Source: a virus (Duplodnaviria > Heunggongvirae > Uroviricota > Caudoviricetes). Taken from it: DNA of 48,167 nucleotides. Position 1 is the first letter of the stretch; the number at the start of each line of letters is the position of its first letter. The notes under the pieces are model-generated. The model worked only from the letters and a program-made list of their open reading frames with translations. It was not told where the DNA came from and made no database searches. The translations under genes were made by a program, and so were the position numbers. The DNA is taken from IMG/VR virus record IMGVR_UViG_2721755721_000005; one strand, 5' to 3'. This document shows, piece after piece, positions 4,014 to 45,150 of this stretch.

Positions 4014-4394
4014 TGTTTTTGGTTTTAACTGTTCCGCGTGCGCTTAGCCGCATTCACAGCATCACAAAATTCACTTTAAAAACGGCGGCAGAGCAGTCAC
4101 GGAGTAAAACTGATACCGCCAAACGTCACCAGAAAATTGATAACAGAGGGCGTTGCAGCGGGGTTGTCACTTAAGCGTATGGTCAACCTGACAACTCGGT
4201 GTCCTCAACGGGGAAGGAATAACCCCGCCATACTTACCGCCGCGCCATTTTGCGGGTTGCCACAACCAGAAGCGCACGGTCGAATTAAATTTAACGACAC
4301 CGTACAGTGAGACGAACTTCGCCGTGCGCTTTCGTGTTGTGTGCCTGCTTTTAACCACGTCAGGCGAGGTGGTATCCTTAAAATCACCACAGTT

Positions 4395-9509: not shown

Positions 9510-9560
9510 CTTTTTTCCTTAATGAATTTATGTGTGGTGATAGTATCCAGCTCTAGATAA

Positions 9561-9590
9561 GAAAAAACACCGCTACCAATGGTGTTTTTT
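9561..9590. terminator. Perfect palindromic hairpin flanked by an A-run and a T-run (bidirectional terminator-like)
   Basis: AAAAAACACC-gctaccaat-GGTGTTTTTT, about 50 bp upstream of the gene A start codon. Confidence 0.4.
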
Positions 9591-10537
9591 CAAGGTTCTT
9601 AGAGCTACCAACTTTTTGAACCGTGGTAACTGGCTTTAACGGAGCGCAGTAACCAAAACTGTCTTTTCAGTGTATCTGTAGTTAGGCCGACACTTCAAGA
9701 ATTCTTTGTACTTTCGTGCGTTTACTCGCTCCATAAAACCAGTTACCAATGGTTACCACCATTGGCGATTTATCGTGCCTGTCAAGATTGGGATCAAGAG
9801 AACAGTTACCTAAATTGCTGTGGTAGTCGGGTGGATCGGGGAGTTCGTGCATATAGCCAAGCTTGGATCGCACCACCTTTAAGGAAACCCGTTGTACGGA
9901 AAGGAATGGGAAAACGCGACCTTACGGCGGTCTGCGACGGGTAAACCTCATGGTGGGAACAGGGCACCGCTTTGCTGAGATGCAGGATAGGGCAGACCCC
10001 CGCAAAATGTCGTCATTTGCGGTGTCTGCCCCGAAAACAGAATATTTTTTCCTGAGCCTGCAGCTGGCTCTAAAAACCGCTATCGCCTCACAAAGCTCGC
10101 TGCTTAACGCCTCACGTTCACCCACTAAACAGCGCACCTGTTAACCGTGAATCACGTACAGATTTATCAATATACTTCGCACGTTTACTGCCGGAAATCC
10201 TCCCTTAATTCCCGCATTTGCCCGAAACCGCCCGCCATTCACCCGCGTGCGCAGGCATTCAGATGCGCAGAAATTAGCATGGGTGTTTTTTCACAATACG
10301 GACGGGGAATAGTGCCGGAAACGGGCCGGACGCGCAAAGATCGCGCTGAGTGGGTGCGGCCAGGTCTTGTTGAGTTTAATGTAATAGTAAATCCAGTCTT
10401 TATGAGTGAAACGTCCACTTCTCGCTCATGGCGGCACTTTAGTGGGCCTGTAAAGTGGATGTTGCCAATCAACGATGAGCAAGGCATTCTAATTGCTTGA
10501 GGTGTTTTCGTATAAAATTTAAACAAAAGGAGCAATT

Positions 10538-11929: not shown

Positions 11930-12520
11930 TTATAGGAGTTATTGGGTGGGTTAATATAACGTTTATTCACCATCAATCAACCGCAACCTTAATGGTGTTA
12001 TTTTCAACCGCGAACTTCCGCTTCTCGCTCAAAGCGGACTAAAATGTTGGCTTGCGCCGGACTTTGCGTATTTAAATAAGTGCTGGTGGTGACTGGTTGC
12101 TGTGTTCTATTTCTACAGAACAAAATTACAGAAACTATACCCAATAGTTGTATTGAATCACTGACGAGACAGCCTCATATTTATCAGGACAGGTGTACGT
12201 TCTATACAGGAGGTTGCCGTGCTGGTTCTCAAATGTGCGCTGGCTATTGTGGCTGTAATGGCGATTTATTGTCTTGCCATTATTCTTATGGATCGCCTTT
12301 CTGACTGATTTCATATTGGCGAGGTAACGGGAGTTAAGTAGAATGGCTGCGGGTGCTTGAGGCTGTCTGCCTCGGGCATGAACACCAACGGCAGATAGAG
12401 AAAAGCCCCAGTTAACATTACACGTCCTGCAAGACGCTTAACATTAATCTGAGGCCACATCTATACTTTGCATACGTAGATTAGCCTCTTACCGACCAAA
12501 AGGTCAAAGAGAAGCGGGCT

Positions 12521-12676
12521 ATGAAGCAGCAAAAGGCGATGTTAATCGCCCTGATCGTCATCTGTTTAACCGTCATAGTGACGGCGCTGGTAACGAGGAA
12601 AGACCTCTGCGAGGTACGAATCCGAACCGGCCAGACGGAGGTCGCTGTCTTCACAGCTTACGAACCTGAGGAGTAA
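12521..12676 (+). CDS. hokD: Hok/Gef-family type I toxin (HokD/RelF-type), 51 aa
   Basis: Not in the ORF track (under 60 aa). Translation MKQQKAMLIALIVICLTVIVTALVTRKDLCEVRIRTGQTEVAVFTAYEPEE has the Hok pattern: one TM helix plus the conserved RK.LCE.R...EVA.F.AYE periplasmic tail. Confidence 0.85.
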   Translation: MKQQKAMLIALIVICLTVIVTALVTRKDLCEVRIRTGQTEVAVFTAYEPEE

Positions 12677-14546: not shown

Positions 14547-14927
14547 ATGACTGAACGCATAGAATTTGTTTTGCCTTACCCGCCGACGGTGAATACCTAC
14601 TGGCGACGTCATGGCAATACGTATTTCATCTCGGAAGCCGGAAAGCGTTATCGCCGTGATGTGGCGCTAATTGTTCGCCAGCAGTGGCTGAAATTAAACC
14701 TGTCCGGAAGGCTGGCGATAAAGATTATTGCAGAGCCACCGGATAAGCGCCGTCGTGATCTGGACAATATCCTGAAAGCACCGCTAGATGCGCTGACGCA
14801 TGCCGGACTACTCATAGACGACGAGCAGTTTGATGAAATCAATATTGTGCGCGGTCAGCTCGTTTCTGGTGGGCGACTGGGCGTGAAGATTTACGAAATA
14901 ATGCATGATGGGCAGGTCCAAAAATGA
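14547..14927 (+). CDS. rusA: Holliday-junction resolvase RusA
   Basis: 126 aa; motifs YPPTVNTYWR and RRRDLDN...DAL..AG...DD match the RusA family. Confidence 0.85.
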   Translation: MTERIEFVLPYPPTVNTYWRRHGNTYFISEAGKRYRRDVALIVRQQWLKLNLSGRLAIKIIAEPPDKRRRDLDNILKAPLDALTHAGLLIDDEQFDEINIVRGQLVSGGRLGVKIYEIMHDGQVQK

Positions 14928-15745
14928 AACTGGAAGATTTACCGAAATACTATTCCCCAAAATCGCCAGGCCTGACTGATGCATCCGTCTCGACGTCAAA
15001 AGATGCGCTGAGCATCACTGATGTGATGGCTGCGCAGGGTATGACACAAAACCGGGCTGAGATGGGATTTTCTGCGTTCCTGGGGAAAATGGGCATTAGT
15101 ATGAATGACAGGGCGCGGGCAACAGAATTACTGGCAGATTATGCACTCAGTCGTTGCGATCGCGTGGCGGCGTTGAGAAAACTTCCGGCAGAAATAAAAC
15201 CGGCAGTGATGCGCATTATGGCTTCGTACGCTTTTGAGGATTATGCCCGCAGTGCAGCGAGTAAAAAACAGTGCCCTTGTTGCGGTGGGAAAAAATTTAT
15301 TGAAAGCGTAGTTTTTACAAACAAGGTCCAGCATCCGGATGGCAAGCCGCCAGTATGGGCAAAGTGTACAAAAGGCGTGTATCCGTCTTACTGGGAAGAA
15401 TGGAAAAAAGTCCGGGAAGTGGTAAAAGTTGCCTGTCCTGAATGCGGGGGAAAGGGTGAGGTCTCCACCGCCTGTAAGGATTGCCGTGGGCGTGGTGTCG
15501 CCATTCATCGTGAAGAGTCGGTAAAACGTGGTATGCCTGTTATCAGAGACTGCCAGCGTTGTGGTGGTCGTGGCTATGAAAGATTGCCGTCAACAGAGGC
15601 GTTTAATGCCATATGCAAAGTGACGAGCGCTATCACTCTTGATACATGGAAAAAATCAGTGAAGCGCTTTTACGATACGTTGGTGATTCGGTTTGACATT
15701 GAAGAGGCATGGGCGGAGCGGCAGTTAAAGAGGGTAACGCGATAG
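14924..15745 (+). CDS. Late antiterminator Q (zinc-finger Q family)
   Basis: 273 aa with multiple CxxC pairs (CPCCGG, CPECGG, CKDCRG, CQRCGG); immediately upstream of the late promoter/terminator and the lysis cassette. Confidence 0.8.
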   Translation: MKLEDLPKYYSPKSPGLTDASVSTSKDALSITDVMAAQGMTQNRAEMGFSAFLGKMGISMNDRARATELLADYALSRCDRVAALRKLPAEIKPAVMRIMASYAFEDYARSAASKKQCPCCGGKKFIESVVFTNKVQHPDGKPPVWAKCTKGVYPSYWEEWKKVREVVKVACPECGGKGEVSTACKDCRGRGVAIHREESVKRGMPVIRDCQRCGGRGYERLPSTEAFNAICKVTSAITLDTWKKSVKRFYDTLVIRFDIEEAWAERQLKRVTR

Positions 15746-15750
15746 TGTTG

Positions 15751-15778
15751 TTGATTTTTCCCGAATCTGTGGTAGATT
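15751..15778 (+). promoter_or_regulatory. Late promoter pR'-like (TTGATT-N16-TAGATT with TG extension)
   Basis: Located 6 bp after the Q stop; canonical position of pR' and the Q-utilisation site. Confidence 0.5.
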
Positions 15779-15826
15779 CGCCTTAACGATGGGCGTTTTA
15801 TGCCTGACGTTAGAGGCATTTTTACA

Positions 15827-15850
15827 ACCCGCCGCCGAGCGGGTTTTTTT
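15827..15850 (+). terminator. tR'-like intrinsic terminator
   Basis: ACCCGC-cgccga-GCGGGT followed by TTTTTTT; a second small hairpin (TGCCT...AGGCA-TTTTT) lies at about 15801-15820. Confidence 0.6.
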
Positions 15851-16180
15851 ATCTGCACAACAGGTAAGAGCACTGAACCCGCAGACCTCGCGGAATTGGT
15901 GAAAGGTGCCGCGCAGTGCTCTTTCCGTTGTGGTGAATGCGCAGGCTGATGCGCGAAAGACATTGCAGCTATTGCGGAAAAGAGCTGTCCGGCGGGGCAA
16001 TTAAACGCCCGTGAGAGTCTGAAATAACCGCAAGCCGGGGATCAGTACCGGCCACCACGATCTCAAATGAGCTGTAGTAACTGGCTGTCATGAATTAATC
16101 AGTGACAGTTATGCCGCGGCCTTCTTTTTTCCCTTCCCGATATAAGAATTACGCCATCCGTTCCGTGCGGAGGTGAGGCT

Positions 16181-16396
16181 ATGAAATCCATGGATAAAAT
16201 TTCAACGGGCATTGCCTACGGCACCTCCGCAGGCAGTGCTGGCTACTGGTTTTTACAGTGGCTTGATCAGGTCAGTCCGTCACAGTGGGCTGCGATTGGT
16301 GTACTGGGGAGTCTGGTTCTGGGCTTCCTGACTTATCTGACAAATCTGTACTTCAAAATCAGAGAAGACAAGCGTAAGGCTGCACGGGGAGAGTAA
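16181..16396 (+). CDS. Phage-21-type class II holin (pinholin S21-like)
   Basis: 71 aa, [63 protein letters not shown], with dual-start MK..M arrangement and two TM segments. Confidence 0.85.
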
Positions 16397-16400
16397 TTCA

Positions 16401-16745
16401 ATGACTCAAAACTATGAACTGATTGTGAAAGGGATCCGCAATTTTGAGAATAAAGTTACGGTAACTTTAGCGTTACGGGACAAAAAACGCTTTGACGGTG
16501 AAATTTTTGACCTGGACATCTCGCTGGACCGTGTTGAAGGTGCCGCGCTGGAGTTTTATGAGGCAGCAGCCAGAAGGAGCATCAGACAGGTCTTCCTGGA
16601 AGTTGCTGCCGGGTTATGTGAAGGGGATGAGCAGTCGCCGGAAAAGCGCCCCGTAATTTTAGATGCGCAGAATGTGTGGATAACCTACAAAGGAAAGCTA
16701 CCAGGAAGAATTACTGGTTCTCTGAAGACTCCACCGAAATGGTAA
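16401..16745 (+). CDS. YdfR-like (DUF1327) protein inside the lysis cassette
   Basis: 114-aa ORF between holin and endolysin, the position of ydfR in Qin; the C-terminal ~40 aa overlap a convergent minus-strand ORF. Confidence 0.55.
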   Translation: MTQNYELIVKGIRNFENKVTVTLALRDKKRFDGEIFDLDISLDRVEGAALEFYEAAARRSIRQVFLEVAAGLCEGDEQSPEKRPVILDAQNVWITYKGKLPGRITGSLKTPPKW

Positions 16746-16983
16746 TTTTACCAGCATATTTTTCTTCCAGTAATGCTACCAGCCACTTGAAAGAATTTTG
16801 TTGTTCCTGGGACCATTTGGGGTTGCGCGATTCAAGCAGGAGCGATGCCAGTGTTGGTTGCATTTGTTCTCTGGGAATTGATAAGGCCAGATATGAAAAT
16901 GCAACAGTGAGGGCATTTACATCATCCCGAAGCCTGGAAATGCAGTCGAGCAACTCCTGTAGAGAAATGGTGTTATTGTCCAT
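16711..16983 (-). CDS. Hypothetical protein encoded antisense within the lysis cassette
   Basis: 90-aa minus-strand ORF with balanced, non-repetitive composition, convergent with the YdfR-like gene. Confidence 0.35.
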   Translation of the reverse strand: MDNNTISLQELLDCISRLRDDVNALTVAFSYLALSIPREQMQPTLASLLLESRNPKWSQEQQNSFKWLVALLEEKYAGKITISVESSENQ

Positions 16984-17088
16984 AAATAATCCTCTTGATT
17001 GTCTTTACCTTTTCCCAGCCTGATTCAACAGGCCGGGACAGATAAACATATCCAGGGTTCAGAAACCGATAAATCCTGATAAATATCC

Positions 17089-17631
17089 ATGAACGCAAAA
17101 ATCAAATACGGCCTGTCAGCTGCTGTTCTGGCGCTGATTGGAGCAGGAGCATCTGCTCCTCAGATACTTGACCAGTTTCTGGATGAAAAAGAGGGTAACC
17201 ACACTACGGCATACCGCGATGGTTCCGGCATATGGACCATCTGTCGAGGGGCCACGATGGTGGATGGTAAACCTGTTATTCCTGGCATGAAACTGACGAA
17301 GGAAAAATGCGATCAGGTTAATGCCATTGAACGAGATAAGGCGCTGGCATGGGTGGAGCGCAACATTAAAGTGCCACTGACCGAACCACAGAAAGCGGGT
17401 ATAGCGTCATTTTGTCCCTATAACATTGGCCCCGGTAAGTGTTTCCCGTCGACGTTTTATAAGCGGCTGAATGCCGATGATCGTAAGGGGGCATGCGAGG
17501 CGATTCGCTGGTGGATAAAAGATGGTGGGCGTGATTGCCGCCTGACAAAAGGGCAGAAGAATGGCTGTTATGGGCAGGTCGAGCGGCGCGATCAGGAAAG
17601 CGCACTGGCGTGCTGGGGGCTGGACCAATGA
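17089..17631 (+). CDS. SAR endolysin (GH24 lysozyme with N-terminal signal-anchor-release segment)
   Basis: N-terminus MNAKIKYGLSAAVLALIGAGASAP (Gly/Ala-rich weak TM), then a lysozyme catalytic region with E..D..T pattern; follows the pinholin. Confidence 0.85.
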   Translation: MNAKIKYGLSAAVLALIGAGASAPQILDQFLDEKEGNHTTAYRDGSGIWTICRGATMVDGKPVIPGMKLTKEKCDQVNAIERDKALAWVERNIKVPLTEPQKAGIASFCPYNIGPGKCFPSTFYKRLNADDRKGACEAIRWWIKDGGRDCRLTKGQKNGCYGQVERRDQESALACWGLDQ

Positions 17632-18164
17632 AAATTAATCCGGATCTTATAGGCGTTGTCGTTATTGCTGGCCTTTCGGTCGCTCTCGTCAAGAGTTGCT
17701 CTCACGCCAGTAATCTTCAGAGCGATAACGACGTTCTGCGAAGTGACAACTCTATGCTGGAGCAGGTAATCGCCACCCAGGCATTCAACTTCAATCGATT
17801 CAATCAGGTTGCAGAACATGCCAACAGTCTTAACTCCCTGATCGACACCAGCACCGAAAAAACCGTAATCGAATACCGGGAGATTCTCCGCCGTGAAAAA
17901 ACCTGTGATCTGCCTGTTCCTGCTGATATCGCTGGTGGGTTGCTCGAATACACGTACCGTTTACGTGCCAGCGCCATGCACACCGATACCGGCAGACCTA
18001 ATGAAGCCTATGATCGTACCGCTGCCACCAGCTCAATGACCTACTGCCAAGCTGTCTTGTGGATTAAGCCGCTACTGGCGTTGATAGAAAAAGGAAATAA
18101 TAATTTTTCGAGTATTCGTGAAATTGATGAGTTGCGTTACAGACCATCTGAGCGTGGCCAGTAA
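17628..18164 (+). CDS. i-spanin Rz
   Basis: ATG at 17628 overlaps the endolysin stop; N-terminal TM segment (LIGVVVIAGLSVALV) then a coiled-coil-like periplasmic domain. Confidence 0.75.
   Translation: MKINPDLIGVVVIAGLSVALVKSCSHASNLQSDNDVLRSDNSMLEQVIATQAFNFNRFNQVAEHANSLNSLIDTSTEKTVIEYREILRREKTCDLPVPADIAGGLLEYTYRLRASAMHTDTGRPNEAYDRTAATSSMTYCQAVLWIKPLLALIEKGNNNFSSIREIDELRYRPSERGQ
17893..18039 (+). CDS. o-spanin Rz1 (lipoprotein) embedded in the +1 frame of Rz
   Basis: GTG start; translation (M)KKPVICLFLLISLVGCSNTRTVYVPAPCTPIPADLMKPMIVPLPPAQ has lipobox LVGC and a Pro-rich mature part. Below the ORF-track size threshold. Confidence 0.6.
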   Translation: MKKPVICLFLLISLVGCSNTRTVYVPAPCTPIPADLMKPMIVPLPPAQ

Positions 18165-18332
18165 GGTTACAGGAAATTTAAAATCTGGCGATGAAATTTA
18201 ATATTAGAAATTCATTGCCTAGTGAGATTAATAATGGGCATCCCTTTGTGACGATAAGCTTTAACACATTCACAAAGGGATATTTAATATAGGGTGGTTA
18301 AATCCCACTTGCTGTGGTGTTTAGGGGATAAT

Positions 18333-19025
18333 TCAAATCTTATCTAACTCATTATAGGCTTCGATAATAAAAATTCTGATTTTAATAAGGCATGATTCAA
18401 TGAAAGGAATTACTTCATAGTCATTCCCATGGAATCTTATTTTTTTCTCTTCGGTAATGACTATGTTTAAAGGTACACCATTACCACTTCTTTGTAATCT
18501 CCCATTTTCGAAAGTAAAGTCTTCTAATTTTTTTCCATTGATATGGTTGTTTTTAAAGAGAATTTTTGCTGAGCTCCCTGCTGTGATTAAATTAAAACCA
18601 TCTACGCTCACACTTAGTTCTTTAACAGAACTCTCTTCTCTTAAGGGGATTGGTTGTCTGTGCTTTACTTCATTAGTGAGATTACACATCATTTCCAACC
18701 AAGATTCGCCAGTGTGATAATCCTGTATAGAAGTAAAAATTTTATATAATGGAGAAGATGATGGTGGGTTTATTTTTAGCGTCTTTGAGAAAAATTTATC
18801 AATAAACTCTTTTTTTCTGTAAGGGAAATATATTTTGGGACGCTCATCATTACTGCTTGGAGAAATATATTTATCATAGGTATCATTAGCGAGATACTCT
18901 AAGGAACTTCGTAAGTTTTCCAAAATAGCTTTGACTTTTACAGGCTTGATATGCTGTGTCTGTCTCATTATGTCAAGACTTTCTTCAACCTCTTGCAATA
19001 AGTCCAACGAGCCTTCTCTAGACAT
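18333..19025 (-). CDS. Uncharacterised moron protein at the lambda bor position (between Rz and cos)
   Basis: 230-aa minus-strand ORF with a strong SD (AAAGGAG) and an upstream TATAAT; AT-rich; no TM segment or recognisable motif. Confidence 0.6.
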   Translation of the reverse strand: MSREGSLDLLQEVEESLDIMRQTQHIKPVKVKAILENLRSSLEYLANDTYDKYISPSSNDERPKIYFPYRKKEFIDKFFSKTLKINPPSSSPLYKIFTSIQDYHTGESWLEMMCNLTNEVKHRQPIPLREESSVKELSVSVDGFNLITAGSSAKILFKNNHINGKKLEDFTFENGRLQRSGNGVPLNIVITEEKKIRFHGNDYEVIPFIESCLIKIRIFIIEAYNELDKI

Positions 19026-44569: not shown

Positions 44570-45150
44570 TGGCATTCAGAATGAGTGAACAAGCACGGAC
44601 CATAAAAATTTATAATCTGCTGGCCGGAACTAATGAATTTATTGGTGAAGGTGACGCATATATTCCGCCTCATACAGGTCTGCCAGCAAACAGTACCGAT
44701 ATTGCACCACCAGATATTCCGGCAGGCTTCGTGGCTGTTTTCAACAGTGATGAGGCATCGTGGCATCTCGTTGAAGACCATCGGGGTAAAACGGTTTATG
44801 ACGTGGCTTCCGGCGACGCGTTATTTATTTCTGAACTCGGTCCGTTACCGGAAAATGTTACCTGGTTGTCGCCGGGAGGGGAATATCAGAAGTGGAACGG
44901 CACAGCCTGGGTGAAGGATACGGAAGCAGAAAAACTGTTCCGGATCCGGGAGGCAGAAGAAACAAAAAACAGCCTGATGCAGGTAGCCAGTGAGCATATT
45001 GCGCCACTTCAGGATGCTGTAGATCTGGAAATCGCAACGGAGGAAGAAATCTCGTTGCTGGAAGCCTGGAAGAAGTATCGGGTGTTGCTGAACCGTGTTA
45101 ATACAACAACTGCACCGGATATTGAATGGCCAGTAGCACCTATAGGGTAA
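44569..45150 (+). CDS. tfa: Tail fibre assembly protein Tfa
   Basis: [43 protein letters not shown]... lambda Tfa-like; ATG overlaps the stf stop. Confidence 0.9.

Follow-up and report, generated by a model that had tools for sequence, protein, structure and literature searches.

The closest described counterpart of the locus considered here is bor of phage lambda, which, together with lom, is a classic moron of lambdoid phages: both genes are expressed by the prophage, and bor lies backwards at the end of the lysis cassette. The description of lambda bor is reportedly due to Barondess and Beckwith, and the moron concept is said to come from Juhala and Hendrix. A second point of reference is provided by the antiholins and timing regulators of lysis, such as S21-71, lambda S107, T4 RI and RIII, and P1 LydB, which are membrane or periplasmic proteins or bind the holin directly. 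Our subject is orf90, a gene that encodes a 90-amino acid (aa) protein and occupies positions 16711-16983, minus strand, of a 48,167-nucleotide (nt) stretch of DNA, which we call the window, from the virus record IMGVR_UViG_2721755721_000005 (Caudoviricetes) of IMG/VR. The host element of the window is a lambdoid E. coli prophage, and the locus is its late lysis cassette, in which the genes follow each other in the order Q, S21-type holin gene, ydfR homologue, orf90 on the minus strand, endolysin gene, and Rz/Rz1. We find that orf90 is a real protein-coding gene under purifying selection and argue, mainly from the contexts in which its relatives occur, that it is probably a lysogen-expressed moron, i.e., a self-contained accessory gene within the late operon.

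The comparison with the known systems goes as follows. Like lambda bor, orf90 is an extra gene at a lysis cassette in the late region, oriented against late transcription; like bor and lom, it is variable among relatives, has apparent expression signals of its own, and differs in composition from its flanks. There is no sequence similarity between bor and orf90, and Bor is a secreted lipoprotein encoded past Rz, whereas the orf90 product is a predicted cytoplasmic acidic helical protein encoded between ydfR and the endolysin gene; moreover, no terminator was found for orf90, and its expression in the lysogen is a prediction. With the antiholins named above the orf90 product has in common that it is small and encoded in or near a lysis cassette. 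They are produced from the same late or lysis transcripts, whereas the product of orf90 is soluble, its gene lies on the opposite strand, and homologues occur in non-phage loci as well.

The evidence that orf90 is a genuine gene is direct. Its product matches the phrog_2411 profile over the entire length (residues 1-90 on positions 1-90 of 90, E 2e-56), so that the homology search proposed in the original prediction leads to PHROG 2411, or Ybl58, a family without a Pfam or NCBIfam model or an assigned function. Identical or near-identical proteins in UniRef and NCBI are labelled only as 'Ybl58' or hypothetical, the gene is annotated as hypothetical in phages Chlobot and vB_EcoS-783R2 and was also called by PGAP in E. 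coli genomes, and a literature search found no publication on orf90, Ybl58 or PHROG 2411. Pairwise ratios of nonsynonymous to synonymous substitution rates (dN/dS) between orf90 and divergent copies range from 0.10 to 0.36, and changes at third codon positions are about twice as frequent as those at first or second positions when orf90 is compared with the Citrobacter copy, the copy adjacent to iha (see below) and the 783R2 copy. The orf90 segment is present in 1160-1221 of 5426 complete E. coli genomes (~21%), including BL21-AI, NU14 and ST131 strains, and every exact variant was found on at least 1000 contigs. An intact 90-aa product is encoded in 77 of 80 IMG/VR loci and in about 68 of 70 metagenome loci (~97% across the two samples), while truncated variants of 50-56 aa also occur. 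The original prediction would have been abandoned had the minus-strand open reading frame (ORF) not been conserved in related phages; it is conserved there.

The opposite strand contains a competing frame. A plus-strand ORF of 115 aa (16676-17023) lies exactly antisense to orf90, and since third codon positions are common to both frames, position bias alone cannot separate the two. Both the window and E. ruysiae have the 115-aa frame open. One to four stops interrupt it in the 783R2, Citrobacter, iha-adjacent and L012 homologues, whereas the minus-strand frame is always open. The plus-strand ORF was therefore rejected as a true gene and is considered a shadow ORF.

Phage vB_EcoS-689R5, like most related phages, lacks the block of DNA that carries orf90 (approximately 16737-17030 in alignment A1). 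The 1.6-kb region is matched by 359 phage records, of which two cover the orf90 segment, and the remaining 357 contain the holin, ydfR and endolysin genes with a gap; among E. coli genomes with the flanking sequences, about half carry the segment. The G+C content across positions 16700-17100 is 0.43-0.455 compared to 0.51-0.53 in the holin and endolysin genes. Thus, two hallmarks of a moron are present, namely variable presence in otherwise collinear phages and a composition distinct from that of the neighbouring genes, although the difference in composition is modest. The limits of the block do not coincide with those of the gene: the block encodes the final two codons and the stop codon of the ydfR homologue, and the last ~8 codons of orf90 come from sequence that is also found in the block-less 689R5. 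In local alignments, homology of the window extends over 16766-17111 with the iha-adjacent copy and over 16710-16957 with the Citrobacter copy. The 689R5 allele retains a YdfR tail ending in ITGSLKTPP and a leader remnant, GTTTATCTGTTCCGG, with an 18-nt filler between them; because remnants of both ends of the module are kept, this allele looks like a deletion derivative, and the 689R5 lineage looks to have lost the block by deletion. The claim that the extra genes are inserted between the holin and endolysin genes therefore stands as a difference in presence and absence, which the two records out of 359 and the indel in alignment A1 support, and stands less firmly as to direction, the 689R5 allele pointing to deletion in its lineage.

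The chief argument for cargo over a regulator of lysis timing comes from where in genomes the family occurs. Only 19 matches emerged when 1.84 billion representatives were searched exhaustively with HMMER; to these, a profile search added proteins of ~90 aa from Serratia, Sodalis, Chania, Gibbsiella, Chimaeribacter, Acerihabitans and Citrobacter. Identity across genera is 28-40%, and the conserved core of the family lies around AFSYLAF and L.(F/Y/L)E(S/A). When IMG/VR and metagenome contigs were scanned for more divergent phage settings, nearly everything recovered was of the E. coli type. In Serratia marcescens, Chimaeribacter and Chania a member of the family is the gene X of a chromosomal synteny block rne-...-pyrC-dinI-X-bssS-solA (contigs L009, 5001-5282; L019/L020, 3001-3270; and L021, 3001-3279), and further chromosomal loci were found in Sodalis and in an environmental bacterium. 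The gene between dinI and bssS has the same length as orf90, is ~30-37% identical to it at the protein level and has in common with it the motif ELL..I....L.VL..AFSYLAF...K....I.SL.LE.QN. Unlike orf90, it is vertically conserved, co-directional with its neighbours and has neither a partner ORF nor phage genes around it. In E. coli K-12, dinI and bssS are, we assume, adjacent and lack an intervening gene.

All phage copies of the family are antisense to late genes, and their positions vary: in E. coli phages orf90 lies between ydfR and the endolysin gene, in Citrobacter its homologue is located upstream of two different holin/endolysin sets, on contig L012 it is found past Rz and before the terminase genes, and on contig L028 between tail genes M and L. 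Another, intact copy is divergent from iha, an adhesin/siderophore-receptor gene, amid insertion sequence (IS) debris (L008, 4946-5349, E. coli VTB97420v), and its exact protein sequence occurs on at least 1000 contigs. This copy keeps about 23 nt of antisense endolysin coding sequence, the homology extending to position 17111 of the window, which implies that it was derived from a phage lysis cassette. The chromosomal homologues between dinI and bssS and those beside iha argue against a dedicated role in lysis. In sum, it is unlikely that a component dedicated to lysis would be core in one bacterial group, stand alone in islands and take up different positions in phages.

Two further copies were encountered. 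The copy on plasmid p-1122 (L007, 4971-5260) adjoins an autotransporter gene and has, immediately behind its start (ATGATGAAAAAAC...), a poly-A run that is one A shorter than in its intact relative P0066, so that it is either frameshifted or affected by a sequencing error. In E. coli BL21-AI (L006, 5448-7347), a block comprising holin, ydfR, orf90, lysozyme and Rz genes is flanked by ydaF and trkG within the Rac prophage, which is defective; there is no Q gene upstream, and all genes of the block are annotated as intact. The BL21 copy of orf90 is GSU80_RS06755 (CP047231, 1375260-1375532).

Signals that could allow orf90 to be expressed on its own are found at and upstream of its start. A Shine-Dalgarno sequence, AAGAGGA (16990-16996, minus strand), can be read 6 nt 5' of the ATG, and its GAGGA core is kept in the Escherichia copies (alignment A4). 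RNA folding predicts that the leader contains a 10-bp hairpin (17013-17038, minus strand; UCCCGGCCUG-UUGAAU-CAGGCUGGGA) with an energy of -21.1 kcal/mol and a z-score of -3.5 relative to shuffled sequences; the GCCTG/CAGGC core of the hairpin is kept in Chlobot and 783R2 and not in the iha-adjacent copy. The putative promoter of orf90 (17045-17073, minus strand) consists of a -35 element TTTATC (17073-17068), a 17-nt spacer and a -10 element TATGTT (17050-17045). It emerged from a scan with a simple weight matrix of our own, the values of which are approximate. The same combination is present at the same position, 61-64 nt 5' of the ATG, in all Escherichia copies and is the best positionally conserved sigma-70-like site over the window, Chlobot, 783R2 and iha-adjacent sequences, with TTGCCG-17-TATTGT as the homologous motif in Citrobacter. 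The motif CCYTGGATATKKT is found in all orf90 copies, whereas 689R5, which does not have the gene, reads CCCACGGACAGGTT, its -10 element being changed from TATGTT to CAGGTT, and the promoter-like motif is kept even in the iha-adjacent copy, where no endolysin gene exists. We infer that this site is the orf90 promoter. A by-eye look for a LexA box 5' of orf90 and of its Serratia orthologue revealed none, and Rfam returned no RNA family over the orf90 region.

If so, leftward transcription of orf90 would start at a weak sigma-70-type promoter of its own, located in the 105-bp spacer that separates it from the endolysin gene, and its transcript would have a structured leader of ~55 nt and a strong ribosome-binding site. 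Late-promoter transcripts stop at a terminator just downstream, which would keep the late operon silent in the lysogen, and orf90 could therefore be made at this stage; transcripts lacking a terminator would run antisense into ydfR. After induction, rightward Q-modified polymerases would be expected to override orf90 transcription. The protein itself would bind another cytoplasmic protein, and this binding would benefit the lysogen rather than lysis.

The properties of the protein fit such a role. It is acidic and soluble (10.3 kDa, isoelectric point of 4.6) and has no hydrophobic segment or signal peptide, the maximum hydropathy over 19 residues being 0.93. Of the two AlphaFold2 (AF2) models built, with predicted local distance difference test (pLDDT) scores of 72 and 83, the one based on an alignment of 44 sequences (pLDDT 82.8) contains helices at residues 8-35, 38-52 and 59-76 followed by a disordered C-terminal tail, which differs among copies. 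Because no enzyme-like or membrane features are present, the product would act most likely through binding another protein in the cytoplasm. A faint likeness to AroQ chorismate mutase and PchB (TM-score ~0.4, E 4-9) was rejected: it is insignificant, and there is no Arg or Lys among the conserved positions. The AroQ active site is expected to hold one of these residues.

Several observations weigh against the interpretation of orf90 as a lysogen-expressed moron. A strict consensus promoter scan found no site on the minus strand, and the candidate promoter, although conserved in position, is weak, with three of six consensus matches in the -35 and four of six in the -10 element. Unlike in a textbook moron, no terminator was found downstream of the gene: a terminator scan of the minus strand over 15700-18400 was negative, which means that any orf90 transcript would extend antisense into ydfR and the holin gene. 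The block upstream of the iha-adjacent copy is ~79% identical to that of the window, compared to 52% at third codon positions of the gene, which suggests constraint, and does no more than suggest it, as endolysin expression is a further constraint on the phage lineage. All phage-borne copies lie within or adjoin late or lysis genes, which pure cargo fails to explain, and a convergent partner ORF is present in all phage copies, an oddity that is likewise not explained by pure cargo. Finally, searches of Pfam, NCBIfam, PADLOC and PDB sequences with the single protein, the alignment members and the profile gave no match, and Foldseek found nothing with E <0.6 in PDB or BFVD.

Before the alternatives are weighed, the neighbourhood of orf90 should be described. 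The late-gene antiterminator gene Q (14924-15745, plus strand; PF03589 Antiterm, E 2.2e-50) is annotated by PGAP as 'antitermination protein' in an identical prophage and sets the direction of late transcription, which orf90 opposes; it is followed on its 3' side by terminator-like hairpins at 15779-15845, detected in the promoter/terminator scan. The next gene (16181-16396, plus strand) encodes an S21-type class II holin of 71 aa with the M-K-S-M dual-start motif (PF04971 'P21 holin S', E 1.4e-35), and records of relatives also label its counterpart as holin. The endolysin gene (17089-17631, plus strand) is divergent from orf90, and its product belongs to the T4-lysozyme family (PF00959, E 4.4e-24; 'rrrQ lysozyme' in PGAP); the translation begins with a Gly/Ala/Ser-rich hydrophobic segment, and the endolysin thus appears to be of the signal-anchor-release (SAR) type. 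The Rz spanin gene (17628-18164, plus strand) was identified as an ORF and by the position and annotation of its equivalents in relatives, a Pfam search of Rz having given no match, and it embeds Rz1 (17893-18039, plus strand), an ORF with the lipobox LVGC. The same arrangement is annotated in E. coli 13KWH46 within a complete prophage adjoining rspAB.

Between the holin gene and orf90 lies the ydfR homologue (16401-16745, plus strand; 114 aa). It was originally described as one of two extra genes, YdfR-like and convergent with an overlapping 90-aa minus-strand ORF, and each part of this description holds: the ORF listing and the sequence place both genes between the holin and endolysin genes, their 3' ends overlap by 35 nt, and the YdfR identity follows from the similarity to K-12 YdfR and from the match to PF07041 (E 1.5e-42), whose 144.2 bits, compared to a gathering cut-off of 25, assign the protein to DUF1327. 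The protein also matches phrog_406 over residues 1-114 of 114. The ydfR homologue is a common DUF1327 passenger of S21-type cassettes. It is composed of a conserved N-terminal domain, residues 1-74, which is 82% identical to K-12 YdfR, and a variant tail ending in RITGSLKTPPKW; the C-terminal 40 residues of the window and K-12 proteins are unrelated. In the Qin prophage of K-12, ydfR occupies the same site between the holin and endolysin genes, but there it overlaps rrrQ directly with no backward gene, whereas in the window orf90 intervenes. Residues 1-72 of K-12 YdfR are reported to bind the N-terminal, catalytic half of RNase E; in the same work RNA co-purified with the protein, and its over-expression had little effect on the transcriptome (2026 study, PMC13232886).

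Elsewhere in the window, just past Rz/Rz1, there is a second backward gene (18333-19025, minus strand; 230 aa) in a region with a G+C content of 0.35-0.42. Its product is hypothetical according to PGAP and had no match in Pfam and PADLOC searches, and the gene is probably another moron, at the site where lambda has bor. Rfam matches above the gathering score comprise an RNAI-like element (9559-9661, minus strand), which is unusual inside a prophage, the sok antitoxin RNA (12351-12526, plus strand) adjoining hokD, the DicF small RNA (4083-4134, minus strand) and IS009 (44912-45110, plus strand).

Alternatively, orf90 may be one half of a convergent cassette, in which a forward ORF on the late strand and the backward orf90 move together and act on each other. 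This is the alternative that survives best, and yet we regard it as unlikely. Its starting point is that in every mobile context examined, including the pair that separates tail genes M and L, a small convergent ORF overlaps the 3' end of orf90 by 14-35 nt, whereas none of the chromosomal Serratia-type loci has such a partner. The sample amounts to about five independent contexts, which limits the weight of the pattern. The partners are YdfR-114 in E. coli, ORFs of 238 aa or 63 aa in Citrobacter, and ORFs of 62, 85 and 60 aa on contigs L012, L026 and L028, respectively; the small forward partners of 60-63 aa (L028, 456-1195; L012, 4001-4436; L022, 4001-4430) are located at unrelated phage positions. 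Despite their different phage contexts, the 63-aa partner of Citrobacter and the 62-aa partner of L012 show full-length homology (E 4e-7). A similar motif, R/K-I/L-T-G-S/D-L..., closes the partners of E. coli, Citrobacter and L012, and the window and Citrobacter agree at every position of an 11-nt junction, GAACCAGTAAT, even though their synonymous sites are saturated (dS, the synonymous divergence, >1.6).

How such a cassette would work can be imagined in several ways. A lysogen-made antagonist or antidote could face a late-made effector, or the two genes could, for example, regulate each other through the antisense overlap; it is doubtful that a lysogen-expressed helical protein, an antisense transcript, or both restrain a late-expressed partner. 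In E. coli the tail of the forward partner would have been fused onto the DUF1327 domain of YdfR. That the cassette as a unit hops among sites of the late operon, i.e., before the holin gene, in the lysis cassette, past Rz, and amid the tail genes, between M and L, seems to us similarly questionable. Only the last ~17 residues of the YdfR tail resemble the partner ORFs, with an hhalign probability of 7.5%, and on the basis of this insignificant profile comparison the tail was rejected as a full partner domain. The L028 partner end is loosely similar to the others and the L026 end is not, and both partners are marginally similar overall. Within E. coli the overlapped tails vary freely on both strands, partnerless homologues of orf90 persist in chromosomes and beside iha, and 689R5 keeps the YdfR tail without orf90. 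The pair also does not resemble a toxin-antitoxin system, as it co-occurs in mobile contexts only, contains no recognisable toxin or antitoxin domain and is convergent rather than operonic; no Pfam or PHROG family of known function was found for the partner ORFs. The common tail may be mere DNA that travels with the module: some 50 nt past the orf90 stop codon may be carried along, recoding the end of whichever gene the module abuts.

Variation of the forward gene itself was also observed. A 157-aa YdfR variant that starts with MEHNNEKS... has the same tail, ...PGRITGSLKTPPKW, convergent with orf90, for example in three metagenome loci and one IMG/VR locus, and N-terminally shortened YdfR versions of 72-73 aa occur as well. 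In these variants the N-terminus of the forward gene was swapped while the junction of the tail with orf90 stayed fixed.

A regulator of lysis timing acting on the pinholin, the SAR endolysin or YdfR, the second of two readings offered in the original prediction, appears improbable to us. It would explain why orf90 lies inside the lysis cassette in E. coli phages and adjoins lysis genes in the Citrobacter and L012 phages, and the neighbouring YdfR has been connected with the integrity of the envelope and with the binding of RNase E (PMC13232886). The orientation of orf90 is wrong for co-expression with lysis genes, and its product has no transmembrane or periplasmic targeting feature, unlike known antiholins and lysis inhibitors; it is encoded by a separate gene of the opposite strand without a fixed position relative to the holin, endolysin and Rz genes. 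Moreover, most phages with the same holin and endolysin do without orf90, the core chromosomal orthologues of Serratia-group bacteria have no lysis genes nearby, and the stand-alone copy beside iha stays intact. Thus, of the two readings offered, lysis timing loses ground because the protein has no membrane or signal segment, is dispensable in most phages and is encoded at varying positions, whereas lysogen-expressed cargo gains from the variable presence, lower G+C content, own Shine-Dalgarno and promoter-like signals, orientation and non-lysis homologues of orf90. A defence function received no support from PADLOC, in which neither orf90 nor YdfR had a match at E <= 1.

It is also conceivable, and very improbable in our opinion, that the functional product is not the protein but an antisense transcript, which would run leftward into ydfR and the holin gene and either silence leaky late transcripts in the lysogen or create a double-stranded stretch at which the late mRNA would be split, between ydfR and the endolysin gene. 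The failure to detect a minus-strand terminator-like site in 15700-18400 and the 3' overlap with a forward gene, which is kept across contexts, are compatible with this idea. It is at odds with the strong constraint at the protein level, with a protein family conserved down to 28% identity across genera and with family members in loci where there is nothing to be antisense to, so that antisense transcription would be at most a secondary effect of a protein-coding gene. The last possibility, a chance or decaying open frame without function, might be suggested by the truncated 50-56-aa variants, the one frameshifted plasmid copy and the fact that neither a function nor literature is known, and is effectively refuted by dN/dS well below 1, intact frames in ~97% of sampled loci, homologues of 28-40% identity with a conserved core motif in other genera, a confident AF2 model and a strong ribosome-binding site.

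Understood as a moron, orf90 leaves the understanding of lysis by pinholins and SAR endolysins unchanged and adds one more uncharacterised member to the morons of lambdoid phages. Roughly one in five sequenced E. coli strains has it, BL21, ST131 and uropathogenic strains among them, and a second type of copy is found beside iha. A gene that is real, selected and, judging from its sequence context, probably expressed in lysogens is a cheap target for functional work. That Serratia-group bacteria have a conserved counterpart on the chromosome, between dinI and bssS, suggests for the family a cellular role which was borrowed by phages.

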